From Candidatus Eiseniibacteriota bacterium (GTDB lineage: Bacteria; Eisenbacteria; RBG-16-71-46; JABDJR01): 64,000 bases of DNA. Each line of letters starts with the position of its first letter. Position 1 is the first letter of the stretch. This document shows positions 5,899-55,252 of the stretch, piece by piece. The translations under genes were made by a program, and so were the position numbers. The notes under the pieces are model-generated. The model saw nothing but the letters and a program-made list of their open reading frames with translations. It was not told the origin of the DNA and did not search any database. Location of the stretch: positions 1,030,071 to 1,094,070 of the forward strand of contig CALOCN010000001.1 in the NCBI GenBank assembly GCA_942491735.1, in the 5' to 3' direction.

Positions 5899-7767
5899 GT
5901 GGGATTCCTGGGGGATCTCCGGTACTTCGGGCCCCGGTTGGGCCCAAACCGGGCCGTCCGACTCGTCGCGGCGAAGCTCTCCAAGACCCGTCGCAAACGC
6001 CGCCTGGCCGCGGATCTCGCCCGCCCCACCCCGCCGGACGCGGTGTGCCGCGGGTTGGGTTTGTCGAAGGACCCCCACGAACGGGTCGCGACCCTGCGCT
6101 CCTCCTGGGAGCAACTCGCCGCCGCCACCCTGCCTTCCCTGCCCGACCCGGACACCGCACGCCGCCACGCCGACGCAGTGCTGGCCGGTCGTCAGCACCT
6201 TTTCGACCAGGATCCCGACGTGGGTTGGCCCCCCAACTGGAACTGGCGCTGGGACGGAACCGACAACGCGGCGCGGTTCCGCGACGACATCCGCAGCACC
6301 TGGGAACTGCAACGTCTCCAGGGGCTGCTTCCGCTGGCCGTCGCGGCGCGGGCCCTGGCCAGCGAGGCGGATGCCGAGGCCTGGTTCACCGGGGTGGAGA
6401 GCTTCGCCGCGGCGCATCCCGGCCCGGGTGGAGTGGCCTGGGAAAGCGCGCTGGAGCTGGGACTCCGCTGCCTTGCCCTGGTCCAGGGGCTGGTCCTACT
6501 CGCGCCCACCGAGGCCTTTGCCACCCGGCACCTGAATGTCCTCACCGTGCTGGAGCGGCACCTGCGTTGGCTGGAGGCGGATCTGAGCCTGGACAAGGTA
6601 GTGCGCGGCAATCACCTCCTGGGCGAACTGGCCGGGCTGATCGCGGGGCGCCTTCTCTTTGCCGCGGACACGGGCAATCTGGAAACAGCCCGCCGGTCGC
6701 TGGACCTCCTGCACGGGGAAATCACAGCCCAGTTTCACCCGGACGGGGTCAACGTGGAGCAGTCCCTCACCTACGAGGCCTTCATCCTGGAGTTCCTGGT
6801 CGTCCCCCTAGCCATGGCCGACACCCTCGGGCGTGCGGTTCCCGCGGCAACCCGGGATCGCCTCACCCGGGCCGCTCACCATCTGGAATGCTGCACCGCG
6901 CCGGACGGATCGCTTCCCCGGGTGGGGGACGCCGATTCGGGCCGTGGAGCTGTCCTCGCCCCACCCAAAGAAGCCCTGCCCGGGCTTCTCGAGCGGGTCC
7001 GCCGGCTCGGCGGACCGGGCCCCGCCGCCTCCGGCGGGCCGTCCGGGGAACCCGCTTTGCCGCGCATCTTCCCCGACGGGGGCCATGTCACCTGGACCCC
7101 GGCCCCCGGGGCGTTCCTCTTCCTGCGGGGAGGGCCGTTTGGCTGGGGTCTTCCGGGACCGGCCTCGCACAGCCACGCGGACCTGCTGGCCCCGGTCCTC
7201 TACCTGGGCGGGGAGCCGCTCCTGGTGGATCCGGGGGTCTTTGGCTATCGCATCGGGGCCGATCGGGACGCGGATCGGGTCCGGGGGGCCCATTCGGCCC
7301 TGGATCCGGGGGCCTCGGTGGGGCCCTTCCCGGCCGGAACCTTCCGCTGGGCGGGCATTCCGGAGGATGCGAAGGTACACTCCCCGGCCCCGGACAGGGT
7401 CCAGGGGACGGTCCCCCTGGCCGGGCCAAACGGCCCTTTGATCTGGCAGAGGTCCATACGGTACAATCAATTAGACGAAACTTGGATAATCCTCGATCGC
7501 CTTCAAGGCAACCCACCCGGCCCCGTAACGTGGGGCTTTCGCTTTGCTCCAGGAATTCATATCGAGTCGGAGACGGAGGGCGTCTACCGGGTTCGTCTGG
7601 CTTCCGGTCGTACCCTGGATGTGCGTCTGGAACCGGTGGGAGAGACATGGGTCGAGGATGCATGGGTGGCGCCGGCCTACGGTCGGCGCGTCCAGGCGCC
7701 GGTTTTGAGGCGACGGATCGAAGGGGCCTTCGAAGAGACGGCCGTGACGTTCACCCCGCGGCGCTGA
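5899..7767 (+). CDS. heparinase II/III-like family protein
   Basis: GTG at 5899, 2 nt after upstream stop, in frame of track ORF 5746..7767; N-terminal [10 protein letters not shown] region and NHLLGE / EQSLTYE segments typical of the family by eye. Confidence 0.6.
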
Positions 7768-26021: not shown

Positions 26022-26060
26022 TCGCAGTTCTTCGCCGAGCTGGCCTTCGCCGATCTGGCC

Positions 26061-27740
26061 TCAGCCGAGCTGGGTTGCCATGAACTCGGCAACCTGATCG
26101 GCCCCCTCGCGGGCCTTGGCCACCAGGGTTTCCGCCTTGGAACGGGTGGAGTCGAGCCACGCGTCGTCCCCCTGGATGCCTCCCAGGTTGATGAGCACGT
26201 TGTAGTAGGCCCCTTCCGCGCAGGCGCGGGCGGCCAGCGCGGCAACGCCGGCATCGCTGACCGAGTTCGGGTTACCGTGCTGCACGCAGGTCAGGGCCAA
26301 CCCGAAGATCGGTACGGTGCGCTCGAGCACCCGCAGGGGAACCCGGGTTGCGCCCCGGTTGGCCTCCATGAGCGCCTGGTTCTTGGCGTTCATTTCCTCT
26401 TCCGTGGTGGCGCGGGTGCGGATGGCGTCCATGACCTTGTTGAAGGCGGCCGTATCCTCGTCGACCGCGCGCAGGAGCTGGTCCTTGATGTCCTGGGCAT
26501 CCTCGGCGATGTCCGCCATGCGTTCCCAGTGCTCCTCGTGCCCCGCCCGGCCCAGGGTCAGGTTGGCCACCATGCTGGTCAGGGCCGCTCCCAGCGCGCC
26601 GCACAACGCGGCCACGCTGCCGCCGCCGGGAGCCGGGGCGTCGGTGGAGAGTTCGTCGGCGAACTCGGCCAGGGTCCGGGACGCCAGCCGGTTGGCTCCG
26701 GAGTCGCGGGCGAGGCGGAACTCGATGATCTTCTCGTCCGGGTCGAACGCGGCGATCTCCCTTAGGCCCAGGGACTGGATCGCGGTCTCGACGACCTGAC
26801 GCACCGGGATACCGGTCGACTTGCCTTGCCGCTTGAGATAGTGCTTTCCCGCCTCCAGCATCGGCTCCAGGGGAATGAGCCCCACCAGCTCCGATCCGGT
26901 GACCCGCAGCCCCCGCTTGCGCGCTTCCTCCTCGATGACATCGAAGGCGGTGTGGGGCGGGGTGATCTTGGTGTTGACGAGGTTGATGGAGACCTGGGCC
27001 CGGTCGTACTCCTCGATGAACCAGCCCACGCCCTTGAAGGCCTTCAGCCGGCCGGGGACCTTCACCGCGGTGCCGTCCGGGTGGCGGATGATCTCGCCGT
27101 GGGCGTCCCGCTTGGCGCGCCCCGCCTCGCGCACGTCCAGGGCGATGTCCTGGGCCAGGCGGCGGTCGCGGGTGTTGAGATTCACGTTGTAGGCGATGAG
27201 GAACTCCCGCGCGCCAATGGCCGTTGCTCCCGACTTGGCGTTGTGTACGGGCGGGCCGAAGTCCGGGGCCCACTGCGGGTTCGTCACCTTGGCCGGCAGC
27301 CCCTCGTACTCGCCCTGGCGTACGTCGGCCAGGTTCTGCCGCTCCGGCCTGGACGCCGCTTCCTCGTAGAGATAGACCGGGATCCCCAGCTCGTCACCGA
27401 CCCGCTTGCCCAGACGCCGGGCCAGCTCCGCGCACTCGGCCATGGTGATGTCCGACACCGGGACAAAGGGACAGACATCGGTGGCGCCCATGCGGGCGTG
27501 CGCTCCGGTGTGCTGGCGCATGTCGATGAGCGTCGCGGCGGTTCGGATCCCGTTGAACGCCGCCTCCAGGACTGCCTCGGGCTCACCGACGAAGGTCACC
27601 ACGGTCCGGTTGGTGGCCTGCCCCGGATCGACGTCCAGGAGCGTGGCTCCCTCGGTGTCGCCGATGGCGGCGGTGATCTGATCGATGACGGCCTTGTTGC
27701 GACCTTCGGAGAAGTTGGGGACGCACTCGACGATGGGCAT
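26061..27740 (-). CDS. ftcD: bifunctional glutamate formimidoyltransferase-cyclodeaminase
   Basis: Internal ATG at 27740; N-terminus MPIVECVPNFSEGRNKAVID and C-terminal PGGGSVAA / YYNVLINLGG closely resemble FTCD transferase and cyclodeaminase domains. Confidence 0.85.
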   Translation of the reverse strand: MPIVECVPNFSEGRNKAVIDQITAAIGDTEGATLLDVDPGQATNRTVVTFVGEPEAVLEAAFNGIRTAATLIDMRQHTGAHARMGATDVCPFVPVSDITMAECAELARRLGKRVGDELGIPVYLYEEAASRPERQNLADVRQGEYEGLPAKVTNPQWAPDFGPPVHNAKSGATAIGAREFLIAYNVNLNTRDRRLAQDIALDVREAGRAKRDAHGEIIRHPDGTAVKVPGRLKAFKGVGWFIEEYDRAQVSINLVNTKITPPHTAFDVIEEEARKRGLRVTGSELVGLIPLEPMLEAGKHYLKRQGKSTGIPVRQVVETAIQSLGLREIAAFDPDEKIIEFRLARDSGANRLASRTLAEFADELSTDAPAPGGGSVAALCGALGAALTSMVANLTLGRAGHEEHWERMADIAEDAQDIKDQLLRAVDEDTAAFNKVMDAIRTRATTEEEMNAKNQALMEANRGATRVPLRVLERTVPIFGLALTCVQHGNPNSVSDAGVAALAARACAEGAYYNVLINLGGIQGDDAWLDSTRSKAETLVAKAREGADQVAEFMATQLG

Positions 27741-27810
27741 GCGGGCTCCTGTGGGACATGGGCGAAAGGGGAAAGAGGCAACGAGTCTAGGGAGCGGGGG
27801 AGACGGGGTC

Positions 27811-28385
27811 AAGCACGCGCCCCGAGCATCAGCGACCACCCCAAGCGAAGGCCCCGCAGACCACCCGGGAGGGGCGCGAGGGGGTTCCGACGACGAAAGC
27901 CTGCGCGTGGAATGGGTCGGCCGGCGCCCCAGGCTACACGCTGCGAGAAGCAACGAGCGCAGCCGGCCGGGGCCCCATTTCGCGCGCAGTAGCGAGTGGA
28001 GACCGTCCAGTGGACGGTCTCCGCGAGCGACTGAGGAGGAGGAACCCCCTCGTGGCCCGGACGGTGGGAAGCGCGCGCCCCGGGCGGGTGGGAAGCAAGC
28101 GCCCCGGGCGGGTGGAAGCACGCGCCCCGAGCATCAGCGACCTCCCCAAGCGAAGGCCCCGCAGACCACCCGGGAGGGGCGCGAGGGGGTTCCGACGACG
28201 AAAGCCTGCGCGTGGAATGGGTCGGCCGGCGCCCCAGGCTACACGCTGCGAGAAGCAACGAACGCAGCCGGCCGGGGCCCCATTTCGCGCGCAGTAGCGA
28301 GTGGGGACCGTCCAGTGGACGGTCTCCGCGAGCGACTGAGGAGGAGGAACCCCCTCGTGGCCCGGACGGGTGGGAAGCGCGCGCG
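27811..28385. repeat. tandem direct repeat: two copies of a ~305-bp unit, each carrying an 11-bp-stem hairpin
   Basis: Copy 1 27811-28115, copy 2 28116-~28385; 3 substitutions over ~270 aligned bp by eye; hairpins GGAGACCGTCC-AGT-GGACGGTCTCC at 27998-28022 and 28303-28327 (copy 2 has A to G giving a G-U wobble); junction is 2.5 copies of a ~25-bp GGGAAGC..GCGCCCCGGGCGGGTG motif. Confidence 0.85.
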
Positions 28386-28513
28386 TCAGGCGGGTGCGAA
28401 GCGCCGCCTCCCGGATGGTGTGGAGGGCCCCTTGCCCGGTGGGATGGGCGCGGATTGCGAAACTGCTAGACTGCGAATGCCCCCCGTCACTCGACCCCGC
28501 CGCGGAGGACGCC

Positions 28514-29449
28514 ATGCGTACGCCAGTTGCCCTGCTTGCCGCCACCATGCTTCTTGCCGCCGCAACCGCGAGCGCCCAGCCCTGCTGCAGTCTTCCGGAC
28601 AACGGCACCGGCACCGCCGACTTGCCGCCCTCCTGTCCCCCGACCGGATACCTGGGCACCCTGCAGGTCATCGACGGCCTTCCCGCCGGGGGAACCCTGG
28701 CCCTGGAAGCGACCCTGAGCAACTTCGTTGCCTCGTCGGTTCCCGGCGGGTCGCTGGGGGGCACCATCGAGACCTGGACCGCCTCGGTCACGCTGCAGGT
28801 GACGGGCGGTGGCACGCTGGCCGGATTCAACCGGGTCATCGTCATGCCGGTCACGGGGGAGACCCACAGTGGGCCACGCACTCCGGGGGATGCCGTCCAG
28901 ACCGTCCCCATTCGGGTCACTGCGTTCGACGGATTGCTCACCGGCGACTCGGATTTTTCCCTCCTCCAATGGGAACGGGATCTCAACCTGAGCCCCGGTC
29001 AGACCACGCTCAGTCGTCAGGGGGGACCCGGGACCGATTTCGAGGCGAGCAGTTTCTTCGACTACCGCTATCGGATCCAGTTCGAGGGGCAGTACGAGAG
29101 TGCGTGGCTCGACGGGTACCGCGGGATCACCCAGGACCTGGAGGCGCGGTTCGATCTTTGCCCGGCCACCGCCTCGACCCCCGGCGTATCGTCTGGCCTG
29201 CGCCCCATCGCGCGTCCCAACCCCATGCGGTCCCTGACCCATCTGGACATTCCGGATGACCTGCAGGCTCACGTGGTGGAGGTGTTCGACACGCGAGGCC
29301 GGTTGTTGCGGCGGATCCAGCCGGAGGGAACCCGGGTGATCTGGGATGGCCGGGATGTGCTGGGCGTTCCCGCACCGGCCGGGGTCTATCTCCTGCGGGT
29401 GCGCGGCACGCGCGAGTCCCGCTCGGTGCGTGTGATCAAACTGCCCTGA
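28514..29449 (+). CDS. secreted protein with C-terminal FlgD-Ig/T9SS-like domain
   Basis: Internal ATG 28514 with GGAGGA 5 nt upstream; signal peptide MRTPVALLAATMLLAAATASA; C-terminal RPNPMRS...VIWDGRDVLGVPAPAGVYLL. Confidence 0.65.
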   Translation: MRTPVALLAATMLLAAATASAQPCCSLPDNGTGTADLPPSCPPTGYLGTLQVIDGLPAGGTLALEATLSNFVASSVPGGSLGGTIETWTASVTLQVTGGGTLAGFNRVIVMPVTGETHSGPRTPGDAVQTVPIRVTAFDGLLTGDSDFSLLQWERDLNLSPGQTTLSRQGGPGTDFEASSFFDYRYRIQFEGQYESAWLDGYRGITQDLEARFDLCPATASTPGVSSGLRPIARPNPMRSLTHLDIPDDLQAHVVEVFDTRGRLLRRIQPEGTRVIWDGRDVLGVPAPAGVYLLRVRGTRESRSVRVIKLP

Positions 29450-30514
29450 CTACGGAACCCGCGCCGGCACCACGGTCAGGGCGATCGGTCCGTCCCCCCG
29501 GGCAATCATCTCCTGGGTGACGACGAGGGACCGGGTGTCGAGCACGATCACCGCATCGGCGTCGAAGTTCCCCAGATAGAGCCGCTCCTCCCAGAGCGCG
29601 ATTCCGGTGTACCCCGGGACGGTGAGCCGGTCGTCGGTTCCCAGGGAAACCGTGCGCAGGGTCAGGGTGTCGTAGGCGCGCACGCCGCCCCAGAAACCGG
29701 TCACGTAGGCGATGCCGTCCTCGTCCACCACCGCCCTGGCCGGGCCGCCGCCCAGATCCAGCGTGTCCAACACCGCCGAGCCCTCGGCGTTCAAGCGCAC
29801 GACCCGTCCGTTGTCCGTGTCGCGTTGATTGTTTCCGGTGCAGATCACGTGCAGACGCTCATCGCGTCCCAGGACGATCGACTGTGGGTTCGTGGGAACG
29901 GGGTGGCGGGCGAGCTCCACCAAGTCCGGAATGCGAAGCAGCACCACATAGCCCTGCCCGTAGTCCCCCTCGGTTCCGTTGAACCCGGTCAACGTCACGG
30001 CCAGGCGGTCCACCCCGGCCCAGATCCCTTCCAGCGCCGGCCCCACCGTGACCCGCCGCACCACGCGCATTGCGGCCAGGTCCAGCTCCACCACCTCGCC
30101 GCTGACGAACGTGGTCACCCACGCCCGGTTCGCATCGGTGGGATCCACGGTCAGCTCCCAGGGGTTGCTGCCGGCACCGATCTGGATACAACCGAGGGTC
30201 CTGCCGGTCAGCGGATCCACCACGCTCACCGTATTGTCCCCCGAGTTCACCACCACGAGGCGGTCCCCGGCGACGTCCACGTCGTTGGGCACCTGACCCG
30301 TGAGCCCGGTCGTGTTGATGGGTGTGGCCTGCTCGCCCAGGGTGGCCGCCCACCACGTTTCCCCCAGGCTGTTGGCCACCACGAGGTGCGCGGCATCCGG
30401 GGACAGGGGCGGCCCCGTGTCCCCCTCGATGGGACAGGCCCCGGTAGGCAGCGTGTCCTGCGAGGAACAGCCGGCGAGGACCCACAACACGGCGGCGAGA
30501 ACCAGCGTCTTCAT
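29450..30514 (-). CDS. lipoprotein, YVTN-type beta-propeller
   Basis: Internal ATG at 30514 (ATGA overlap with upstream gene); lipobox VLAGC; repeats of VVNSGDNTVSVVD type. Confidence 0.65.
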   Translation of the reverse strand: MKTLVLAAVLWVLAGCSSQDTLPTGACPIEGDTGPPLSPDAAHLVVANSLGETWWAATLGEQATPINTTGLTGQVPNDVDVAGDRLVVVNSGDNTVSVVDPLTGRTLGCIQIGAGSNPWELTVDPTDANRAWVTTFVSGEVVELDLAAMRVVRRVTVGPALEGIWAGVDRLAVTLTGFNGTEGDYGQGYVVLLRIPDLVELARHPVPTNPQSIVLGRDERLHVICTGNNQRDTDNGRVVRLNAEGSAVLDTLDLGGGPARAVVDEDGIAYVTGFWGGVRAYDTLTLRTVSLGTDDRLTVPGYTGIALWEERLYLGNFDADAVIVLDTRSLVVTQEMIARGDGPIALTVVPARVP

Positions 30515-32043
30515 CGTGATCGCACCACGCGTCCCACGGAGTGCCAGCCGGTGCCGGTGCGTGCAGCCAGCAGATACACGCCGGGCGGGACCGGGACGCC
30601 GTGCTCGTCGCGGCCGTCCCAGACGGATTCCCCGTTGCTCACCCGCAGGGTCGCCCGCAGACGGCCATGGATGTCGAACACGGAGAGGGAGCGTGTGTCG
30701 GAATCGAGCGCGCTCAGCACGGTGCGGGAGCGAAACGGGTTGGGATAGGCATGGACGAGGACCCGCGGGGTGACGGTCGAGGTGGCCGTCGATGGATCCT
30801 GGGCGGCGCGAAAGTAGATCTCCTCCTTGGTGTGCCGGGTGTCCTGCCACAGCACGAAGACGCGTCCGGCGCCGTCGGCGTGCAGGGTGGGCCGGGACGA
30901 CTTGCCCGAAACGCCGAAGCTGATCTGGGTGTCGCCGGCCCCGGTGGAGTCCCACCCGGCCCCCGCCGCAGCGCTCTGATAGAACACCTGCCGGTTGAAC
31001 ACCGACACCCGTCCATCCTGCCACGCCACATGGCGGCGGCCGGAGGGGTCCACGCTGATATCCGGCTCTTCCGCGCCCACGGCGGCGGGGGAGACGCGGG
31101 TCGGCGGGCCCCATACCCCGCCCGGGGTGCGCTCCCGCAGATAGACCGCCTTGGTTCCCTCCCGCGGATCGGCCCACACCGCGACCAGGGTGCCGTCCGG
31201 CGCCACATCCAGGGCGACCCCGTCCGCCGCGGCGCTGGGAGGGGAGAGGGTGTCGGGGGCCGACCATGCGTCTCCCGGGGGGCGGTGCCGATAGAGGATA
31301 CGGAACCCTCCGTTGGCGTTGTCCCGCCATGCCGCATGCAACGCTCCGTCCGGTCCGCTGGCCAGGGCGGGGAAATTGGAATCGCTGGGGTTCGCCGAGA
31401 CGTTCTCGTCCGGACCGTCACCCGGGGTCGTGTCCCAGGCTCCACCGGTTCGGCTCTTGAACAGGATTTCCGCGTTATCCCCGTCGTAGCGGAAGTCGTA
31501 CCAGGCCACATGCGCGGTGCCGTCCGGTGCAACGACCAGGTTCGGCAGGTATGAGTTGTCCCCGTCGGTCTCGGGATGCGCGGTCGTGGTGAGGCGGGTC
31601 TCGGTGGTGCTGTCCCCCCACGCCTCGCCGCCCGCGCGCACCTTGGTGAACAGCTCCAGGTTGTTGATGCCGGCAACCCGATAGTCGTGCCACACCATGA
31701 GCAGGGTGTCGCCCGGCAACGTGACCAGGGAGGGGAACTTCGCCCCCAGGCCTTCCCCGATGTAGGTCGCGTTGAACACCACCGCGGTCTCGTCCGGTCC
31801 CCAGACCCCGCCCAACTCCCGCGTGCGGGTGTTGATCTGGAAGTTGGAGTTGGGGCCGTCCTGTTCGGCCCATGCCGCGGTGAGTCGTCCCCACGAATCC
31901 ATGGCCAACGCGCCGTGATTCAGCCCGGTCTCGCTGACCGTCCCCTTCGTGGTGAGTCGTTCCTCCGGACCCCAATCCAGAGCCCGGGCCGGGCTGCCCA
32001 GGGCCATCCATGCCAGCGTGAGGAGGCAAACCCCGCGCCTCAT
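30511..32043 (-). CDS. secreted repeat protein (DG..HVAW.D repeats, probable beta-propeller) with C-terminal FlgD-Ig/T9SS-like domain
   Basis: Internal ATG at 32043 overlapping TonB-receptor stop (ATGA); signal peptide MRRGVCLLTLAWMALGSPARA; C-terminal YPNPFRS...VWDGRDEHGVPVPPGVYLL. Confidence 0.65.
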   Translation of the reverse strand: MRRGVCLLTLAWMALGSPARALDWGPEERLTTKGTVSETGLNHGALAMDSWGRLTAAWAEQDGPNSNFQINTRTRELGGVWGPDETAVVFNATYIGEGLGAKFPSLVTLPGDTLLMVWHDYRVAGINNLELFTKVRAGGEAWGDSTTETRLTTTAHPETDGDNSYLPNLVVAPDGTAHVAWYDFRYDGDNAEILFKSRTGGAWDTTPGDGPDENVSANPSDSNFPALASGPDGALHAAWRDNANGGFRILYRHRPPGDAWSAPDTLSPPSAAADGVALDVAPDGTLVAVWADPREGTKAVYLRERTPGGVWGPPTRVSPAAVGAEEPDISVDPSGRRHVAWQDGRVSVFNRQVFYQSAAAGAGWDSTGAGDTQISFGVSGKSSRPTLHADGAGRVFVLWQDTRHTKEEIYFRAAQDPSTATSTVTPRVLVHAYPNPFRSRTVLSALDSDTRSLSVFDIHGRLRATLRVSNGESVWDGRDEHGVPVPPGVYLLAARTGTGWHSVGRVVRSR

Positions 32044-34016
32044 GATCCGGCCGGAGTCCAGCGCACGCCCAGACGAATCACCCGCCCGGTGGTGGCATAG
32101 CCGCGCAGATCCTCGTAGGCCACCGCGCCCAGATTCTCCCCCTCGACCTCCAGCCGCACCCGTGGGGTGACCGCGAACCGCAGCCGGGCATGCCAGAGCG
32201 TGTAGCCGGGTTGCCACTTCGTGTTGGCCGCGGTGACCGGCACCGCGCTGGTGGTCCGCGCACCGGCGGCGGCGGACCAGGGGCCGTGGGTCAGCGAAAG
32301 CTCGGCGAATGCGGTGGTGGCGGCGCGCCCCACCAACTGACGACCACCGGTCACCGGATCCCCGGTGGCATCCTCGGCTTCGACCCAGGTCAGGGACCCA
32401 TCCAGCCGCCAATCCAGGGAACCGGTGTTGAAACCCACCGAGGCATCCGACTCCACGCCGCGAAAGGTAGCCTGGGCCACGTTGTGTGGTCGCCACACCC
32501 CGTCCGCTCCGGGGACCCACTGGATCAGGTCATCCACCCGCGAGGCGAACAGACCAACCTGGGCCCGGGAGCCTTTCCATGTTCCTTCCAGTCCCAGGTC
32601 GGCGTCGTAGGCACGCTCGGGACGGAGGTCGGGGTTGCCGGCCGCACTGGCCCGGGCCGGCCAGAAGAGATCGTCGAAGGTGGGGGGGCGAAACCCGGTT
32701 CCCAGGCCGCCCCGGGCCCGCAACGAGGTGGTGTCGTCCAGTTCCCAGGATCGGGTGAGCGTGACCCGGGCGCTCGGCTCGGGGGAGAGCCCCTCGATCG
32801 CGTCGCCGCGACCGGCCAAGGTGATCCCCCACGCGCCCCGGGTCAGACCCAGTTCCGCACCCAGGGATCCGCGCGGACGGGTGCGGGTTCCATCGGTCGT
32901 GCTCTCCAGACGGTCGATCGCCGCTTCCGAACGGATGTCCAACGACGCGTTGTCCAGGACCTGGGCCCACTCGAGGGCGGCGCGCCCGCGCTCGTTGCGG
33001 TGGGTGTCGTCGATCGCCCCCAACGGACTGCCCGGATCGCCGTAGTGACGGCGAAAGGACTGCCCGCTGAGATCCAGGGTCCAAAGACCCGGCAGGTCGC
33101 TTAGCGTGGCTCCGCGCAGGGTGGCCACTGCTTCGGCGAAGGTGTCTTCCCGCATGGCCTCGGGCGAGGGAAAGAATCGGGACCCGGGCACATCCCGTTT
33201 GTCCCTGCGTGCCTCCACCGAGAGCTCCAGTGCCCCGGCCCAGGTCGGGTGATGGGACACCCGGGCGCGCAACCCGCCGGTGCGCACCGAGCCCTGGAGT
33301 TCCCCAAGGATCGGCGAGGCCGTTTCCAGTCGTAGCGCGGTCTCCCCGGACCAACGACCCGAAGCCACCCCGCCGCGGGCCCAGAGCAATCCGCGCTCCT
33401 GGGTTCCGGCCATGATCCGCAGGGATGCGTTGGTCTCCCGGTCCTGACGTCGCACGAGATTGACCGCGCCCCCCAGGGCATAGAATCCGTACTGGGCTCC
33501 CACGCTTCCGCGGCTCACCTCGATGCGCTCCAGCCCATCGGGATCCAGGGCGTACAGATCCACCGCGCCACCCTGGGCCGAGTTGAGCGGCCGGCCGTCC
33601 AGCATTACCGCCACCCGGTCGGCACGGTAGCCGCGGATGGAAACGACCTGGCTCGCCCCGTCGCCCAGACCGGTCACCCGCACTCCGGCCACCGGGGATA
33701 GGGCCTGCCCCAATTCCACCGGATCCAGCCGTTCCAACCACGCGCGATCCAGCACGGTGCGTGGGCCCAGTGTGGGCCGACCCACCGCGACCCGCGGGGC
33801 CTCGGTGCGTACGACCGGAAGGGTGTATACGGCCAGGGTGTCCGTGCGGGCCGTGGAATCGCGAAGGGCGGCCGACGTGGGAGCCGGTGCAAGCACGGTT
33901 GTGGAACGAGCCCCGATTCCCGGTCCCAGGACCGAGGATCGGAGGGCAGGGGCCGAAACGGATGCAGACCCCAGGACCACCACGCCAGCCGCCAACGCGA
34001 TCCGGAAACGTGTCAT
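32040..34016 (-). CDS. TonB-dependent outer-membrane receptor
   Basis: 658 aa; signal peptide; TonB-box-like TLPVVRTEA; plug region VVSIRGYRADRVAVMLDGRPLNSAQGGAVDLYALDPDGLERIEVSRG. Confidence 0.8.
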   Translation of the reverse strand: MTRFRIALAAGVVVLGSASVSAPALRSSVLGPGIGARSTTVLAPAPTSAALRDSTARTDTLAVYTLPVVRTEAPRVAVGRPTLGPRTVLDRAWLERLDPVELGQALSPVAGVRVTGLGDGASQVVSIRGYRADRVAVMLDGRPLNSAQGGAVDLYALDPDGLERIEVSRGSVGAQYGFYALGGAVNLVRRQDRETNASLRIMAGTQERGLLWARGGVASGRWSGETALRLETASPILGELQGSVRTGGLRARVSHHPTWAGALELSVEARRDKRDVPGSRFFPSPEAMREDTFAEAVATLRGATLSDLPGLWTLDLSGQSFRRHYGDPGSPLGAIDDTHRNERGRAALEWAQVLDNASLDIRSEAAIDRLESTTDGTRTRPRGSLGAELGLTRGAWGITLAGRGDAIEGLSPEPSARVTLTRSWELDDTTSLRARGGLGTGFRPPTFDDLFWPARASAAGNPDLRPERAYDADLGLEGTWKGSRAQVGLFASRVDDLIQWVPGADGVWRPHNVAQATFRGVESDASVGFNTGSLDWRLDGSLTWVEAEDATGDPVTGGRQLVGRAATTAFAELSLTHGPWSAAAGARTTSAVPVTAANTKWQPGYTLWHARLRFAVTPRVRLEVEGENLGAVAYEDLRGYATTGRVIRLGVRWTPAGS

Positions 34017-34017
34017 C

Positions 34018-35529
34018 TCAGCGAACGACCGCTACCCGGGTCACTGCGGTGTGGCTGCCGTCTGTCAGGTGAACGAAGTAGATGCCGTTGGCGAACGGGG
34101 TGGTGTCCAGGGCGAGGGCACCGTCGGCCACCCCGTCGCGGGACAGGAGCACCCGTCCGCGCACATCGACGAGACGCACCGTGGCCTTTCCCTGGATGCC
34201 GCGCAGGGCGAGCCGCAAGGCACCGCGGGAGGGGTTGTCCAGGGCGCGCGCCGCCAGCGGCAACGCGGCCACCGTGATCCGGCGCTCCCCCAGGGTCTCC
34301 AGTCCTCCGGTGCGAAGCCGGGCGACCAGACGGTAGGCCACCTCCCCGCGCACGGGGTCCTCGTCGCGCCAGGTACCCCTTTCCGCGGCAACGAGGTCCG
34401 CGACGGTTCGCCAGTCGGCTGCGCCCCCGCTGCGCTCGACCTGGATGCGGGAGGCTTCGTGGACGTCGCCCAGGGTCCAGTCGAGCCGGACTCCGGCCTC
34501 GGTGGCTTCCACCGAGAACGTGGTGAGCTGCACCGGCACCGGCTTGTCCTCATGGACGGCCAGACAGCCGGGACCGTCGCCGGTGGCATACGTGTCGATG
34601 ACCTGCTCATCGCTCAGGCGAAGCCGCACCAGGAGGTCGTCGGCGAACAGGGTGAAGAGGAGGTTGCCCATGCCGTCGAACGCGAGTCCGGTGTACCCGG
34701 TACCTCCGACCAGCAGAGCGTTGCCGGAATCCCGGATCACCGTGCGGGTATCGGCGTCGTAGGTGTAGAGCCCCCCGAAGTAGTCCGTGGTGACCGCGAG
34801 TCCGTCGCCGATGGCGATCTTGCCCGGGCTCCCTCCCAGGACCAGGGTGTCCTGCGGCGCGTGCGTGGCCCCGTCGATGACGTGCGCCTCCCCGAACACG
34901 GAGAAGTAGTTCCCGGTGCACATCACGTGGAGGTCGTTGTTCCAGGCGGCCAGCCACTGGGGGTTCATCCCCACCGCTAGGGTGTCGGTAATCGCGAGCG
35001 TACCCGGGTCCAGGGCGAACACCGTCCCCGGGTCGTAACCGAAGTCGCTGGGCCGGAACCCGGTGTTGGCCACATAGCAGACGCCGTTCAGGAGGAGCAC
35101 GTCTTCCGGTGAGCCGCCGACCCCCACCCGGCCGGTCTCGGTGCCGGTGGCGTCGAAGCGGACCAGTTCGTGGGTGTTGAGCAACGACACGTAGACGTTG
35201 CCCGCGTCGTCCACGTCGAGGGCGTAGGGGTTTGAGCCGGCTCCCGTGGAGAGGGTCTGCAACAGCGTGAGCGTGGCGGTGTCCAGGACCTCCACCGCGT
35301 CCGCGCCGGAGACCACCACGTAGAGCTTGCCCGCCTTCACCACCGCCTCGCTGGGAAACCCGGCGAAGGCGTGCGGTCCCAGTTGCACCGCGCCCGTGGT
35401 CAGGTCCGCGGTGGAGATCGTGTTGTCGATTCCGTTCATGACGAGGGCGGTCGGTGTGGCGTGAGCCACGGGGGATTGGACCCCGGGGGCGAGCAGAAGC
35501 AAGAAGCAGACAGCAATGAAGCGTGGCAC
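34018..35529 (-). CDS. secreted YVTN-type beta-propeller protein with C-terminal sorting-like domain
   Basis: GTG start at 35529; signal peptide MPRFIAVCFLLLLAPGVQSPVAHA; stop 1 nt before receptor start; C-terminal ...GIYFVHLTDG... Confidence 0.65.
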   Translation of the reverse strand: MPRFIAVCFLLLLAPGVQSPVAHATPTALVMNGIDNTISTADLTTGAVQLGPHAFAGFPSEAVVKAGKLYVVVSGADAVEVLDTATLTLLQTLSTGAGSNPYALDVDDAGNVYVSLLNTHELVRFDATGTETGRVGVGGSPEDVLLLNGVCYVANTGFRPSDFGYDPGTVFALDPGTLAITDTLAVGMNPQWLAAWNNDLHVMCTGNYFSVFGEAHVIDGATHAPQDTLVLGGSPGKIAIGDGLAVTTDYFGGLYTYDADTRTVIRDSGNALLVGGTGYTGLAFDGMGNLLFTLFADDLLVRLRLSDEQVIDTYATGDGPGCLAVHEDKPVPVQLTTFSVEATEAGVRLDWTLGDVHEASRIQVERSGGAADWRTVADLVAAERGTWRDEDPVRGEVAYRLVARLRTGGLETLGERRITVAALPLAARALDNPSRGALRLALRGIQGKATVRLVDVRGRVLLSRDGVADGALALDTTPFANGIYFVHLTDGSHTAVTRVAVVR

Positions 35530-35614
35530 GTCGAAAACCTCCCGTTCGAGATGCAGGGACGTCTTCGGGGCGGGGAACGCCGGACGAGTGACGCGGGGGG
35601 ATCAGCGCACGGCA

Positions 35615-35634: not shown

Positions 35635-35951
35635 ACCCGGCGCCGGTCGGCGTCGAACCACGTCATGCGTCCTCAGCACTCCTCGAAGGACGTCAGACAT
35701 CGTCCGTGGCCGGTCTCCTGACTTGCGGGTCATCCTCGGGTCGCCCCTTCCCGGAAACGTGTTCCAGTGGGATTCTTGCGACCGTTGTCACCGCTTACAG
35801 TGGCGGGTCCGTGCCGGATTCTCACCGGCTTCCCGTGCACCACGGACGAGATGTGAGTGAGGCGCAGTCTAGGGATGCGGGAGGGGGGGGTCAATGAGGA
35901 ACAGGGAATCGGTTACGGTTAGGCGGGATACAGGTTCGGGAAGGAGCAGCG

Positions 35952-39626: not shown

Positions 39627-41669
39627 CTACGGGATCAACACGAGCCGCTGGACCGATTGGAACCCTCCCGCGCGAAGCCGGTACAGGTAGACCCCCGCCG
39701 GTGCCTTGCGTCCCAGATCATCCACGCCGTTCCACCGCGCGGTATGCGAGCCCGCGCCCAGATTCGTGCGAACCAGTTCCCGCACCCGCCGCCCGGCCAG
39801 GTCGAACACCTCCAGGGTCGCCGGACCGCTCTCGGCCAGGGTGAACCCGATCGTCGTGCTGGAACGGAACGGGTTGGGTACCGCGGAGTGCAGGGTCACC
39901 GCGGGGGTGATTTCCGGGTCGGGCGCGGCGAGGGGAGTGGCCTGGTACCCGAAGTCCTGGTCGGTCAGGCTGCCCGAGCAATCGGCGGCCAGTTTCGCCT
40001 CGTCCGGGGTGAGGATCCCATCCGGGTCGTAGGTCGGGGCGGCACCGCTGGGAACGGTGGTGTTGTCCACCCGCACCGTGTAGCGCCCGGCGGCCAGACC
40101 GGAGAAGGCGTAGGCGCCGCTTCCCGTGGTCGTTGCCGTGTCCAGGACGGCAAGCGATTCATCCAGGAGTTCCACCGTGACTCCCGGGAGTCCCGGCTCC
40201 CCGCTGCGGGTCTGGTCGCCGTTCTGATCGTCCCAGACTACGCCGGCCACCGTGCCGTCCCTGCGCGTGAACTCCCAGCGATCGGTGCGGAAGGTGATGC
40301 TTGCCCCGCTGTTGCTGATGAGGGTCGCCACCACGTTGATCAGCTCCCCGTTGCCCCCGTTGGAAACGGCGAACGGATCCAGGATGTCGTTGCCACCCCA
40401 GAGGTACGAGTCGTCGTTCACGAAGTCGGCCAGGGGAATGGTGATCTTCTGCCAGCCTCCGCCGGCGACCAGGTCACCTCCCGTGGCCTTGACGGTGAGC
40501 GTCGTCTCGAACTCGTCGTCCGCGCTCGGGGAGATGTTCCCGTCCCCGTTGTCGTCCTCCTGGAGCTGGATGATCAGGTTGTAGTCCTGCCCCGCATCCG
40601 GCTCGACCCACAGGCTGAAGTGGGTCATGCCGGTGAGGTCGTGGTGATTCTCCCGGCCAAAGCCGCCGAAGTAGCCGGGGCTGCCCCCGGCTCCCCAACC
40701 CACGTCGATGGAGCCGGCGCAACCCTCTCCCGGGGCCGAGGTGGTGGTGTTCTGGCCGATTCCGCCGCCGCCGATCCCGTTGAAGGAGAACCAGCCGTCC
40801 CCGTTGGGATTCCCGTTGTCCCCACCCGCGAAGATGATCGAACACCCCTCGAACTCCGGTCGTTGGTAGACGCGAACGTAGTCCACCACCAGTTCCTGCG
40901 GGAACACCGTGGTCCCGTCGGGAGGCCCGGGCAGGTTGCCGCCCACCGCCATGTTGAGCAGGATGTGCATGTCATGGTTGAACGGCGCGGGGTACTCGCC
41001 GCCGGTGGAATACCAGGTCTGCTGGCACGCGTAGAGTTCACCATCCACGAACCAGCGAAGTTCGTTGGGGGACCACTCGAGGGCGAAGGTGTGGAAGGCA
41101 TCGTTGAAGGTGCCGCTGGGGAGAACGTAGTCGTTCCCCGAGTAGACGTTCCCGGGAAACGCGTCGCCGTAGTGGATGGTCCCGAACACCTCGTCCGGGT
41201 TCTGCCCCACGTACTCCATGATGTCGATCTCGCCGCCCGCCGCCCAGCCCCCGTAGTTGTTGTCGGTGAAGAGAAGCCAGAAGGCGGGCCAGATTCCCTG
41301 GCCGATCGGCAGCTTGGCCCGCATCTCGAATCGGCCGTAGGTGAAGCTCATCGTGTTGCGGGTGACGAGCCGGGCCGACGTGTAGTTCCTCCCGCCAATC
41401 GACTCCTGCTTGGCGGTGATGGTGAGGTGTCCACCGGCCACCGTGGCGTTCTGGCTGCGGTAGTACTGCAGTTCGTTGTTTCCCCAGCCGCACAGGCTCG
41501 GACACCCGGTTCCGAGGTCGAACCCCCATTTGGTGCCGTCGACGGAGCTTCCATTGAACTCGTCCGACCAGACCAACTCGTAGTCCTGGGAGAGGGCCAA
41601 GGCGGGGCATAGGCCCATAAGCCCGGCGCAAGCCAGGACGACGATCGCAGCGCGGTGACATGCACCCAT
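39627..41669 (-). CDS. glycoside hydrolase family 16 (beta-glucanase/laminarinase-like), multidomain, with C-terminal FlgD-Ig/T9SS-like domain
   Basis: Internal ATG 41669 with AGGAG about 10 nt upstream; signal peptide; GH16 catalytic motif GEIDIMEY (ExDxxE); Gly/Asp-rich middle; Cna-B-like segment; C-terminal VPNPFRS...WNGVDDLGRKAPAGVYLY. Confidence 0.8.
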   Translation of the reverse strand: MGACHRAAIVVLACAGLMGLCPALALSQDYELVWSDEFNGSSVDGTKWGFDLGTGCPSLCGWGNNELQYYRSQNATVAGGHLTITAKQESIGGRNYTSARLVTRNTMSFTYGRFEMRAKLPIGQGIWPAFWLLFTDNNYGGWAAGGEIDIMEYVGQNPDEVFGTIHYGDAFPGNVYSGNDYVLPSGTFNDAFHTFALEWSPNELRWFVDGELYACQQTWYSTGGEYPAPFNHDMHILLNMAVGGNLPGPPDGTTVFPQELVVDYVRVYQRPEFEGCSIIFAGGDNGNPNGDGWFSFNGIGGGGIGQNTTTSAPGEGCAGSIDVGWGAGGSPGYFGGFGRENHHDLTGMTHFSLWVEPDAGQDYNLIIQLQEDDNGDGNISPSADDEFETTLTVKATGGDLVAGGGWQKITIPLADFVNDDSYLWGGNDILDPFAVSNGGNGELINVVATLISNSGASITFRTDRWEFTRRDGTVAGVVWDDQNGDQTRSGEPGLPGVTVELLDESLAVLDTATTTGSGAYAFSGLAAGRYTVRVDNTTVPSGAAPTYDPDGILTPDEAKLAADCSGSLTDQDFGYQATPLAAPDPEITPAVTLHSAVPNPFRSSTTIGFTLAESGPATLEVFDLAGRRVRELVRTNLGAGSHTARWNGVDDLGRKAPAGVYLYRLRAGGFQSVQRLVLIP

Positions 41670-44632: not shown

Positions 44633-45600
44633 CAGTCTGATTCCCCTTCCTCGAAGTCGTCGCTGAGGATGTAATCGTCAGCGTGCTCCAGCAGGTAGGT
44701 AGCCTTGCGTTGGGCCAGGATGTTGACGAGGCGGTATTGCGGCGCCTCGTCCACGTCCACCTTGAGCGCCCGCTCAAGGAGCCCGACGAATTCCGGTTTG
44801 TTCTGGGTCTGGATGGACACGCTCTGTGCCATGGTGACAAAGGTGCCGGCCTTCTCTCCCTTGGAGAGCTCGACCGCCCGGGCAAAGTGTCTGCGGGCGG
44901 CTTCGAGATCACCGCCCATCTCCTCGGGGAGCGCCTTGAGGATGATCATCACCTCGTGCAGCGCCCCCGCATCATAGGTTTCGTCCAGGACCAGGCAGTG
45001 GGTCAGCATGGCGGTGGGAATGGGTGCATCGGCGAGCAAATCCGCCCGATCCATCCCCAAACCGATCGCCGATCCCCAGGCGGCGGCAGTCCAGTAGAGA
45101 AAGTCGATGTGCTCGACCTTGACCCGGGTTACTGCCCCCTCCGGGTTGACCGCCAGGGAGTCCGAGAAGTGCTTGTAGTCGAGATCCAACGCCCGCATCC
45201 CGTAGTCGCGGCCCCGGAGATAGAGCTTCAGTGCCCGGGCCCGGAGCTCCTCGGCCCGTACCCAGTCCTCGTCCTCGATGAGGTCGGCCTCGGACTGGAC
45301 AAAGGCGTTGGCGTAGGAAGTGAATCCGGAACAGGCTGCCAGCAGGAGGGTCCGGTTCTCCGGAACATCGACCAGCAGCGTTTCCATCGTCTTGAGGGCA
45401 AATGGAAGGGCGTCACGCACGAGCTCGGGGTCGTCGTCGGTCGCGAAGACCTCGGCCGAGCCGGCGAACGTACCCGCCATGCTGTTGACCGCCATCTTCT
45501 TGATCGAACAACCATTGGCCACCAGGGCCAAGCCCACGAGCGCAAGCGCTGCAAAACCCCGCCATGCCCCCGGCTCGGGCCTGTGAAGCATCGGTTTCAT
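44632..45600 (-). CDS. TRAP-transporter-associated TPR-like lipoprotein (TatT-like)
   Basis: Lipobox LVANGCS; helical TPR-like composition; position directly upstream of dctP-like gene; assignment tentative. Confidence 0.5.
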   Translation of the reverse strand: MKPMLHRPEPGAWRGFAALALVGLALVANGCSIKKMAVNSMAGTFAGSAEVFATDDDPELVRDALPFALKTMETLLVDVPENRTLLLAACSGFTSYANAFVQSEADLIEDEDWVRAEELRARALKLYLRGRDYGMRALDLDYKHFSDSLAVNPEGAVTRVKVEHIDFLYWTAAAWGSAIGLGMDRADLLADAPIPTAMLTHCLVLDETYDAGALHEVMIILKALPEEMGGDLEAARRHFARAVELSKGEKAGTFVTMAQSVSIQTQNKPEFVGLLERALKVDVDEAPQYRLVNILAQRKATYLLEHADDYILSDDFEEGESD

Positions 45601-51802: not shown

Positions 51803-54800
51803 TCAGCGCACCCGCACCACGCGCCGCATCGCGGTCACGTCCGGGGTTTCCACCCGGACCAGATACACCCCGGCCGCCACAAGCGCCCCCTGCGTGTTAC
51901 GTCCATCCCAACGCAACTCGTGGGCTCCGCTTTTCAGCACGCCGTCCTTGAGCGATCGCACCAGTCGCCCGGACGCGTCGAACACCCGCACCCGCACCGG
52001 TCCCGCGGTCGCCATCTCGAACTGAAGTCGCGTGCCCAGTGAGAACGGGTTCGGGAACGCGGCCAGCGCCACCGGCGACACGACGGGCGTATCCGCGGCA
52101 AGGATGGGCTCGGCGGTGCGGAAGTGTCCCTGGTTGCGGCCGGCCACCCCGGGCCGGAACCAGCGCGTGGCGGGGAAGTAGGGCGACGGCGTTCGCAGCC
52201 GCCACTGCACGGAGTAGAGCGTGGATGGATTGAGCCCGGTGAGCTGGTTCAGGAGCTCCGTGGAGGAACCCAGGCTCCCCACCACCGGTCCGGTCTCGGC
52301 CCAGCCGCTGTACCAACTGATGCTGAGATCTCCCAGGTAGGGGTGGTCCGAGGTCGGATAGATCCACCACTCCTGCCGGATCCGGGTGCGCCCGGCCGGG
52401 CTCTGGGCACGCCCGGTATGGATCTGGATCTGATCCGGTAGGTCGGTCGTTCCCAGACGGGAAACCGGTTGCCCCCCACTGTTCCGGATCTGGGGCCGGT
52501 GTGGAGTCTGCCAGAACTGCGAGGTCCCTCCGCCGGGGTAGCTCCACACCCGCCCCCGCTGACTGATTCCTCCATTGAGGTAATCGACTGCGGACCCGGC
52601 CGGATCGCAGAAACCATCCCCGTTGAAGTCACCGGCCGCCACCGCCCAACCACCGTGCGCGCCCGCCTGGTTGGACCCCGACCACCACGCGCCAAACCCG
52701 CCCACCTCCATCACGCCCCACCGGCCTTCCGTGTTCTGGCCGTCGGTGTAGTAGGGCGCCCCCGCGACCAGGTCTCCCAGCCCGTCCGCGTTCACGTCCC
52801 CGGCGTCGGCCAACGCGAATCCCAGGTTGGCTCCGGTCTGGCCGCCCCACTCGGAGCGGCTGATGTTCTGGTATTCCAGCCGCACCATGCCTTCGTTGCT
52901 GAAGGTGCTGGTGGCCCACGGTGCTCCCATGGCCACGCCGTCCTCGTGGCCGTTGGGGGAGGCCACGGCGGCGAGCGCGTAGCCCAGCTGGATCCCGGTC
53001 GGGAACGGAGTCAACGACGACCCCTGCCATTCCCAGGTGGGGGTGGTCTCCGGTCCGGTGGGTCCGCCTCGGTACCCCCGCACCAGTCCCTCGTCATCCG
53101 CATTGTCGTCGAAGAGCGGGGCCGAGACGAACAGGTCGGTGTACCCGTCCCCATCCTTGTCGCAGGCCGTAACCGCGAAGCCGAACGCGCACCCGGAGTG
53201 CGGCCCGGTGACCGTCCATACCGGGGTGGCGGCCAGCCCGGTCGGCGACCCCAGGTAGCAGAACGCCGCGCCCAGGTTGCTCGACCCGTAGTCCTTCGCC
53301 CCGACGATCACATCGGCGTAGCCGTCTCCGTTGACGTCACCCGCCGAGGCCACCGCGTTCCCCACGAAATCCGAGACGCCCCCCACGGTGCTGAACCAGT
53401 TCGCCACGGCTCCCGGACCGGTGGCCGATCCGTGAAACAGGTACGCCCTCCCGGAGTTCGCACCACCTCCGTTGTCCCCGCGCGCCCCCACCAGCACGTC
53501 GTCGAACCCATCCCCGTTCACGTCTCCGGCGATGGCCACCGAGGAGCCGTGCCAGTCGTAGACCGCGTTCCCTTCATGGGTCCAGGGAGCGGGGAGGGTC
53601 GTGCTGAGCCCCAGGGACCCGCCATAGACCAGCTCCACCCGTCCCGCCTCCGTACCATGGATCCCGTCGTAGAACGGCGATCCCACCAGGAGATCCTCGT
53701 ACCCATCCCCGTTGACATCCCCCCCGCTCCCCAGGGACTGGCCGTATTGTTCGCCGGTCTGGTCCCCGAAGATGGCGAATCCGCCCGTGGTGGCCAGGCC
53801 CTCGGCCCCGCCCTTGAAGAGCCGGACCCGACCCGCGTTGATGTTGGCTCCATCGTCGTAGATGTATTCCGCTGCGAGGTATTCCGAGAACCCGTTTCCA
53901 TCGACGTCACCGGCGGTGGCCACGCAGTGACCCAGGGCCGCCCAGTCCTGGGTGCCGTTCAGGTACCAATCGAAGTTCGCGCCGATCCCCGTCGCCGATC
54001 CCGAGTAGCCCAGGATGCGCCCCGCGTTGGTGGCCCCGTACCAGGGGACGCCCACCATGAGATCGGCGTAGCCGTTCCCGTCCAGGTCGCCGGCCGGGGC
54101 GACCGAGAACCCGAACTGGTCGCCGCTCCCTCCGCTGAGGATACGGCTACCGGTGTTGGTGAGCCCCGTCGCCGTGCCGTAGCAGACGATGACCCGCCCG
54201 GCCTGGGTGGCCAGGGGGTAATCCGGAGCGCCGATGGCGGCGTCGGCATAGCCGTCCCGATTGACGTCGCCGGCCAACGAGACACAGTGACCGTAGCGTG
54301 CGTTGGCCGCGGGCCCGACCAGGGTCCAGGTGTCCAGGGCGTAGGTTCCGGTGGAGCTCCCCAGATACAATTGGACCTGGCCCGCCTCGGGCGAGGCAAG
54401 ACCGGGATTGTAGCCGGGGGATCCCACCAGCCAGTCGGAGTAGCCGTCGCCGTTGACGTCCCCGCAGGTCGACACGCTGTAGCCGAACTCGGAACCACTC
54501 GTGCCGCCTCCCACCCATCCGGTGCTGGTGGAGAGGCCGGTCGAGGAACCCAGGTGCAGATAGGCGCGACCCGGAGAGCCGAAGGTGGCTCCCCATTCCG
54601 GAGCGCCGATCAACACGTCGCAGTACCCATCCCCGTTGACGTCGCCCGCGGTGGCGACCGAGAACCCGGTCCTGGATTGGCTGCTCCCCACGCGCTCCCA
54701 ATCCGGGGTGGTGGAAAGCCCGGTCGCCGAACCCAGGTAGAGATAGGCGTACCCGCGGTTGGAGTCCGCGAACGGAGCCCCCACCAGGACGTCGTCGTAG

Positions 54801-55159: not shown

Positions 55160-55252
55160 GGAGCACCTCCTGGGAGCTATCCAGAGACGCGCATTTTCCG
55201 CGGCGACGAGGCCATCCTGACCGTGAAGCCGTCCACGAAAACCCCTGCCCCG

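Follow-up and report, generated by a model that had tools for sequence, protein, structure and literature searches.

Tandem duplications which arise by misalignment of short direct repeats, either through RecA-independent slippage or through unequal sister-strand exchange, have been described for Escherichia coli. Palindromic and structured intergenic sequences are known from several further classes. Genomes with a RAYT gene contain tens to hundreds of scattered REP elements (20-40 nt) or REPINs (about 100 nt), and most of these copies are located downstream of a gene. In the paired small RNAs PrrF1/PrrF2 of Pseudomonas aeruginosa and OmrA/OmrB of E. coli, each member has an identifiable promoter as well as a Rho-independent terminator, and conservation extends across species. 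Riboswitch aptamers reside inside the 5' UTR; they are ancient, widely conserved and diverged from each other. Structured RNAs, unlike neutral DNA, are marked by a stable strand-biased fold, by G-U pairs and by loops rich in purines. Long near-perfect GC stems, on the other hand, are commoner in DNA palindromes than in evolved RNAs.

In this study, we analysed two adjacent, near-identical units between ftcD and a gene for a secreted protein in a 64-kb stretch of DNA (hereafter the window), and we compared them with each of these classes. With moderate confidence, we read the units as an orphan palindromic spacer that was recently duplicated in tandem by way of microrepeats and for which no RNA or regulatory role is indicated.

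The tandem duplication and its junction

The gap between ftcD (minus strand) and the secreted-protein gene (plus strand) measures 773 bp, and two head-to-tail copies occupy most of it. TRF detects a period of 305 at 27811-28402 (1.9 copies, 97% matches, score 1128), and a repeat search pairs 27804-28064 with 28109-28369 (261 nt, 98%). Read on the plus strand, copy 1 extends over 27811..28115 in the TRF phase (27804-28108 in the repeat-search phase) and copy 2 over 28116..28402, with a degenerate tail to ~28413; blastn aligns copy 2 to copy 1 at 97.2% identity. TRF, repeat search and blastn therefore agree with the initial annotation, which had described near-identical direct repeats of ~305 bp in a divergent gap of ~770 bp. 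The core of the copies is identical at 258 of 261 positions and differs by three substitutions only (27838 A>T, 27957 G>A and 28000 A>G). Divergence between the copies is higher in the microrepeat zone, i.e. the final ~44 nt of each period, which also contains a 1-nt indel. The copies follow each other at high identity with nothing between them, and the tandem duplication is real. Judged by three substitutions in 261 nt, the event is young.

Independent support came from short-read Logan contigs of two samples (ERR9669565 and ERR9670067). The exact flanking proteins were found on a 1.38-Mb NCBI contig and in the Logan assemblies of these two samples; in their flanks, the contigs from Logan match the window without a difference, and they break inside the repeat. 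The restriction of the exact proteins to these contigs points to a metagenome-type assembly, in which a second copy could be an artefact, e.g. two strain variants joined end to end. We consider this very improbable. The left contig of ERR9669565 (L004) stops at 27868, the end of the last 31-mer holding the copy-1-specific A27838. Such a stop is expected of a k=31 graph if there is a second copy whose left context is not the same, here one with T instead of A at the position of 27838. The junction has its own 24-nt array, which is found at neither outer edge, and long-contig assemblers do not normally concatenate alleles. What favours an artefact comes from the second sample, ERR9670067, in which one contig (L003) ends at 27956 and the other (L002) begins at 28263, on either side of the inter-copy SNP 27957/28262. 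Contigs that abut a single SNP in this way also fit a one-copy haplotype, so that copy number may vary between samples or populations.

The two copies are joined by an array of 24-nt microrepeats at 28056..28129 on the plus strand (consensus CCCGGGCGGGTGGGAAGCACGCGC; TRF: 3.2 copies, score 113, 88% matches). A microrepeat at this junction had been noticed before as 2.5 copies of ~25 bp; its presence holds, and its dimensions are corrected by TRF to a period of 24 and 3.2 copies. A scan with the 24-nt consensus located a degenerate motif, GGGAGACGGGGTCAAGCACGCGCC, on the plus strand at 27798..27821, the left edge of the ancestral unit. Two progressively degenerate motifs at the right edge of copy 2 (28361..28408, plus strand) were detected by repeat search and consensus scan. 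The motif occurs 5-6 times with a conserved core, GGGTGGGAAGC(R)CGCGC, and has no occurrence elsewhere in the 64-kb window. Short direct repeats are thus present at both borders of the duplicated segment and at the novel junction.

Since the ancestral unit has copies of the 24-nt motif at its left and at its right, the earlier proposal that the microrepeat mediated the duplication is supported. The ancestral unit would have comprised ~280 bp bracketed by motif copies (...CGGGGTCAAGCACGCGCC on the left, ...CGGGTGGGAAGCGCGCGC on the right). Misalignment of these direct repeats, either by replication slippage or by unequal sister-strand exchange, would have generated the two copies, and the slippage-prone 24-nt array which joins them may have gained extra units since. 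By the arrangement of the repeats, we regard such a slippage mechanism as quite probable. The junction holds three 24-nt units, whereas simple unequal exchange would leave a single hybrid unit, and the history is therefore more complex than one step. As a consequence of the duplication, the promoters of ftcD and of the secreted-protein gene would have come to lie 305 bp further apart.

Flanking genes, promoters and the locus in relatives

On the left, ftcD (26060..27740, minus strand) encodes a glutamate formiminotransferase / cyclodeaminase of 559 aa with the Pfam domains FTCD_N, FTCD and FTCD_C. Its translation starts MPIVECVPNFSEGRN, and the closest relatives of the protein are 73-75% identical. 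The bacterium is uncultured and probably related to Eisenbacteria, a name attached only to an FtcD match of 67% identity. On the right, the secreted-protein gene (28514..29449, plus strand) encodes 311 aa that begin with a signal-peptide-like segment and end in a weak FlgD_ig tail; its nearest homologue is 52% identical.

A promoter is predicted for ftcD at 27784..27812 on the minus strand. It reads TTGACC-N17-TAGACT (-35 TTGACC at 27812-27807, -10 TAGACT at 27789-27784), it is the sole sigma-70-like site in 27600-28700, and its -35 box borders directly on the left end of copy 1. TTGACC-N17-TA(G/C)ACT is present upstream of ftcD in all four relatives with 73-75% FtcD identity (L010-L013) at equal distance from the ATG, and the same consensus stands directly before the cobalamin riboswitch of the window (35894). 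On account of this conserved promoter, the ftcD transcript is predicted to start near 27777 on the minus strand. For the secreted-protein gene, a pattern scan identified an extended -10 motif, TGCTAGACT, at 28464..28472 on the plus strand, 41 nt before the ATG. A motif of this type stands 36-37 nt ahead of the ATG in two homologues (L009, TGCTAGATT; L008, TGGTAGTGT), and we regard TGCTAGACT as the putative promoter of the gene. The Shine-Dalgarno sequence of the gene (28505-28510) follows about 90 nt past copy 2. Two further promoter candidates were spotted by eye and rejected: a sigma-54 promoter TGG...TTGC at 28445-28458, with a spacing one base short, and ECF-type GGAAC motifs at 28041 and 28346, with no CGT at the right spacing.

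Because both predicted promoters fall between the units and the genes, the units (27813-28463) appear to be located upstream of both divergent promoters and outside both 5' UTRs. This disagrees with the 5'-UTR element that had been suggested initially, as the ftcD promoter (27812-27784) on one side and the extended -10 (28464-28472) on the other separate the units from the genes. A cis-regulatory leader would be a tandem riboswitch or thermometer acting either on the secreted-protein gene (plus strand) or on ftcD (minus strand, e.g. a folate-related switch). It would agree with the strong structure in front of both genes and with a GGAGGA-rich stretch beside the closing stem of the unit. Nonetheless, we hold it to be scarcely credible. 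The units do not lie between a predicted transcription start and a start codon. Rfam at E<=10 returned only miRNA-hairpin noise in the duplicated region and no family of THF or other riboswitches. No expression platform was seen: 27600-28700 contains no terminator-like site, and the Shine-Dalgarno sequence stands well clear of copy 2. With a covariance model of the unit, no such element was found upstream in the three homologue loci of the secreted protein or in the ftcD loci of the four relatives. Tandem riboswitches such as the glycine riboswitch do share with the units the arrangement of two similar structured domains in a row upstream of a gene. Their aptamers, however, are placed in the 5' UTR and are ancient, widely conserved and mutually diverged, whereas the units, at 99% identity to each other, are found upstream of the promoters and belong to no Rfam family.

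The gene order of relatives comprises a B12-riboswitch operon (Por_Secre_tail protein, TonB receptor, ..., 354-aa propeller protein), ftcD and a diacylglycerol-kinase-like gene. In the window, the 354-aa gene is located at 29450-30514 on the minus strand, and its orthologue in relatives shows 51% identity. This orthologue ends about 20 nt before the ftcD -35 box in L013; in L012, the distance from the end of the gene at this position to the box is about 60 nt. The spot held here by the secreted-protein gene and the units belongs to a PAS sensor gene in L010 and L011. The ftcD upstream regions of the four relatives measure 97-270 nt. At three loci with homologues of the secreted protein (45-52% identical), the gene is not beside ftcD and has an upstream region of 62-155 nt. 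Neither the secreted-protein gene nor the units are present at this position in any of the four relatives examined (L010-L013). As relatives have the orthologue of the 354-aa gene or other genes there, the secreted-protein gene together with the units is, by this comparison, a lineage-specific insertion at a variable site.

Coding potential, predicted fold and homologues of the unit

Codon-position GC is flat in the unit (0.71-0.77, compared with about 0.70/0.50/0.85 in the genes of the window), and the period is not divisible by three. Translated searches, which were of limited sensitivity and returned not even the query itself, gave no match for the plus frame (257 aa) among 5.8 billion proteins and none for the minus frame (192 aa) among 1.84 billion representative proteins. 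An exact look-up of the junction-spanning ORFs for independent contigs found none on record. Because codon-position GC is flat and the two long frames are without protein match, the units are non-coding. The long ORFs which cross the region are spurious, as the initial annotation had supposed.

In RNA MFE prediction, each unit contains a core of ~208 nt that adopts a Y-shaped fold with purine-rich junctions (plus strand; 27861..28068 in copy 1, 28166..28374 in copy 2). The two cores align at 99% identity, and copy 2 scores 213 bits with the covariance model. In copy 1, the fold consists of a closing stem of about 20 bp (27861-27888 with 28041-28068), a long arm of ~90 nt (27901-27989) and a 13-bp hairpin arm (27992-28028). 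It contains 77 pairs, five of which are G-U and correspond to A-C mismatches on the opposite strand. The MFE is -138 kcal/mol on the plus strand (z -8.6) and -117 kcal/mol on the minus strand (z -5.35), with 200 dinucleotide shuffles in each case. The core has the lowest MFE among 200-nt windows of the 64 kb, and the arms of the unit are the top inverted repeats of the whole 64 kb; a window-wide z-score scan with 15 shuffles and fixed registers served as a rough background only. The unpaired stretches of the plus strand are rich in purines (A 18% vs T 8%). The predicted structure of the unit is far beyond chance and leans to the plus strand. This strong folding reflects that the DNA is built as a palindrome and does not demonstrate an RNA.

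The hairpin arm includes an 11-bp hairpin, GGAGACCGUCC-AGU-GGACGGUCUCC, at 27998..28022 of copy 1 (plus strand; 27998-28008 with 28012-28022 in the pair list), and its equivalent in copy 2 is found 305 nt further on at 28303..28327, with a G-U pair at 28305. All 11 pairs of copy 1 are Watson-Crick, and the stem is extendable to 13. The predicted pair list therefore confirms a hairpin with an 11-bp stem in each copy. The substitution 28000 A>G converts A-U into G-U on the plus strand only. This wobble had been taken as a hint at structure on the RNA level; pairing is indeed kept, on the plus strand, but as a hint at RNA the wobble is weak, because it concerns one of three substitutions only and another one, 27957 G>A, breaks the predicted pair 27934-27957. 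Within the fold core there are two substitutions, one of which keeps its pair and one of which breaks it, in a comparison of two near-identical copies. The hairpin 25-mer is identical to an unrelated T-tailed terminator in Cryobacterium, and the sequence itself is therefore not diagnostic.

Homologues of the unit were searched for in several collections. Rfam at gathering thresholds over the whole window gave nothing on the units and a cobalamin riboswitch elsewhere at 117 bits. The covariance model (188-nt core, 71 pairs) was run over 179 kb, consisting of the window and 13 loci including the syntenic loci of relatives, and recovered only the two copies and their fragments; its matches in L014 and L015 are biased by the selection of those loci. 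An exact search with the hairpin 22-mer in GTDB genomes gave a single match, the unrelated T-tailed terminator of Cryobacterium zongtaii, and no match in viral contigs. A split pattern of both 11-nt closing arms, correctly spaced, had two matches in JGI metagenomes (L014, L015), limited to the 11-mers and close to chance expectation. No match to plasmids and phages was obtained by blastn. A search with the unit had been proposed in the initial annotation as a check of its distribution; it was carried out for the 64 kb, in which blastn reveals a single locus and no further copy, and for the syntenic loci of relatives, from which the unit is absent by the covariance model.

Could the unit be an orphan, lineage-specific gene for a structured sRNA of ~190-210 nt with a three-way junction, transcribed from the plus strand by a non-canonical promoter and present as a tandem pair? 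The z-score of -8.6 compared with -5.35 on the minus strand, the five plus-strand G-U pairs together with pairing kept by 28000 A>G on this strand only, the purine-rich loops and junctions and the most stable 200-nt fold of the window all favour such a gene. We nevertheless consider it unlikely. Scans for sigma-70-type promoters and intrinsic terminators in 27600-28700 found neither inside the units, despite the clear promoter consensus of the clade, and thus neither an own promoter nor a defined 3' end was seen. No homologue that could show covariation was found in the searched collections; 27957 G>A breaks a predicted pair, and the long, near-perfect GC stems point to a DNA palindrome more than to an evolved RNA. 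The units resemble PrrF1/PrrF2 and OmrA/OmrB in being two adjacent, near-identical, structured, non-coding intergenic units, but the own promoter, Rho-independent terminator and cross-species conservation of those sRNAs were not seen. Still less likely is the more specific claim that the units encode an undescribed, lineage-restricted RNA of ~200 nt with a three-way junction, transcribed from the plus strand by a non-sigma-70 promoter and just duplicated. An orphan sRNA pair, if real, would contribute a single lineage-specific RNA.

Palindromic DNA, mobile elements and the preferred reading

Terminal inverted repeats are present at the ends of the core: the 28-nt imperfect arms CCACCCGGGAGGGGCGCGAGGGGGTTCC and GGAACCCCCTCGTGGCCCGGACGGGTGG are 82% complementary and enclose 152 nt. 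The ~208-nt core could accordingly be a mobile element that is not autonomous, or what is left of one, of the MITE or REPIN kind; more copies would then lie elsewhere in the genome, and the tandem pair would be secondary. Strand-asymmetric hairpins with G-T pairs, as in REP elements handled as ssDNA, and the location in a lineage-specific segment would fit, yet we give this possibility a small chance only. The arm ends show no target-site duplication (flanks ...GCAGA/CCACCC and GGTGGG/AAGCG..., with the slash at the arm end and without a direct repeat). No transposase, integrase, RAYT or reverse transcriptase was found among the large ORFs scanned across the 64 kb. Dispersed copies, such as those of REP, BIME or REPIN elements, may lie elsewhere in a genome whose contig is longer than 1.38 Mb, but were found in the 64-kb window neither by blastn nor by the covariance model, and the GTDB, JGI, viral and plasmid collections contributed no relatives. 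Multiple copies and a related autonomous IS were likewise missing from the window, and the arm-pattern scan of JGI gave chance hits. The short-read contigs enter the unit for 58-150 nt and break only at inter-copy differences, which argues against many near-identical copies in those metagenomes.

MITEs (such as Correia, ERIC/IRU and the Tn3-derived TIMEs) are like the units in their size (about 130-260 bp), in having terminal inverted repeats and in folding into long hairpins, but no target-site duplication, dispersed copies or parent IS with matching ends were found here. REP/BIME and REPIN elements of gamma-proteobacteria, which are mobilised by RAYT, resemble the units as intergenic, GC-rich, imperfect palindromes with G-T/G-U-tolerant hairpins and strand asymmetry. 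The units differ by a branched core of 208 nt in place of a palindrome of 20-40 nt, by the one locus seen within 64 kb, by their location in front of both neighbouring genes, and by the lack of a RAYT in view and of a Y1-transposase domain in the large ORFs scanned. The REP-like repeat considered in the initial annotation is not upheld, with no other copy in the 64-kb window, in the searched collections or by the covariance model.

Three further identities were dropped. The msr/msd ncRNA of a retron was rejected with ftcD and a secreted protein as neighbours and no RT domain in the large ORFs scanned in the window; an integron attC site and Tn3-type inverted repeats were rejected without defining features.

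The units might also act as DNA, with the 24-nt motifs or palindromes serving as regulator sites or as cruciforms which tune the divergent promoters, and with the duplication altering dosage or spacing. Their position exactly between the divergent promoters, from the ftcD -35 box onward, and the 5-6 occurrences of the 24-nt motif with its conserved core would be in line with this. We regard such a role as quite improbable, since relatives keep the ftcD promoter without such an upstream sequence, the 24-nt motif is absent elsewhere in the window and no regulator gene is adjacent. We rank the alternatives in the order of an sRNA pair, a MITE- or REPIN-like remnant, sites at the DNA level, a leader or riboswitch, and an assembly artefact.

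The duplicated orphan spacer therefore remains our preferred reading. The units represent a lineage-specific, non-coding, GC-rich nested palindrome in the promoter-less spacer between the predicted promoters of ftcD and of the secreted-protein gene. No sign was found that they belong to either mRNA or have a sequence-specific function. The duplication is probably neutral, and we see an even chance that the units are without RNA or regulatory function. Neutral spacer DNA fits poorly with a fold that reaches z -8.6 on the plus strand and is clearly less stable on the minus strand, with five G-U pairs that are A-C mismatches on the other strand and with unpaired plus-strand stretches in which A (18%) exceeds T (8%).

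The units are of little importance beyond annotation. They are a reminder that great stability of a fold, together with one change that preserves pairing as G-U, is not enough for an RNA element. As by-products, the analysis provides a clear TTGACC-N17-TAGACT promoter consensus for a poorly known lineage, places a variable site of insertion between ftcD and the operon for B12 uptake, and offers a clean case of a young microrepeat-mediated duplication.

Among the described systems, the units compare best with the tandem duplications formed at short direct repeats. They differ from them by 3.2 junction units in place of one hybrid, which points to additional slippage, and by a mechanism deduced from the sequence. 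They share with them head-to-tail copies without a spacer, 24-nt repeats at the edges and at the junction, and near-identity of the copies. The locus is a new orphan example within the known class of intergenic palindromes and repeat-mediated duplications.

A shared promoter consensus and the cobalamin riboswitch operon

A clear sigma-70-type promoter consensus, consisting of TTGACC, 17 nt and TAGACT, is common to ftcD in five genomes and to a riboswitch operon. The corresponding sites are located at 27784-27812 (ftcD) and 35866-35894 (riboswitch operon) in the window and at about 5900-5960 in the ftcD loci of four relatives (L010-L013). In the operon, the promoter directly precedes a cobalamin riboswitch (35691-35894, minus strand; Rfam RF00174, 117 bits), which stands at the head of the operon. 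The operon encodes a Por_Secre_tail protein at 34018-35601, a TonB-dependent receptor at 32040-34016, a protein of 510 aa and, at 29450-30514, a propeller-like protein of 354 aa. This gene order is kept in L012 and L013. The TTGACC-N17-TAGACT consensus is an aid to the annotation of this poorly known lineage, which is probably related to Eisenbacteria.

Variable gene content between ftcD and the 354-aa gene

The stretch separating the 354-aa gene from ftcD differs among the relatives (window 27813-29449 versus about 4800-6000 in L010-L013). It is filled by the secreted FlgD_ig gene and the 305-bp units in the window, is empty in L013 and holds two small genes in L012. In L010 and L011 it contains the gene of a PAS sensor of 1213 aa, which lies on the opposite strand. 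At window 29447-29452, the plus-strand secreted gene and the minus-strand 354-aa gene meet stop codon to stop codon, without a spacer; no space is left for a terminator between these convergent genes.

The break points of the short-read contigs that run into the units differ by sample (L003 and L002 from ERR9670067 versus L004 and L001 from ERR9669565). One contig pair abuts a single SNP and would be compatible with a one-copy recombinant haplotype as well. Hence, the copy number of the unit may be polymorphic between populations.

Further repeats and folds, and the hairpin match in Cryobacterium

The direct-repeat families with a spacing of about 180 nt are not non-coding; they are the FG-GAP repeats of a 1149-aa FlgD_ig-tailed protein (51803-55252, minus strand). 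FlgD_ig or Por_Secre_tail C-terminal domains are found in at least five other window genes, not counting the secreted gene. For three intragenic 200-nt windows (40401-40600, plus; 45301-45500, minus; 44701-44900, plus), a coarse scan based on no more than 15 shuffles gave provisional folding z-scores that are strongly negative (-5 to -6.5).

The 25-nt hairpin sequence of the unit has an exact match in the unrelated actinobacterium Cryobacterium zongtaii (L005, 2594-2618). This match is the chance recurrence of a simple palindrome; in C. zongtaii the sequence constitutes a classical A-tract/T-tract bidirectional terminator.
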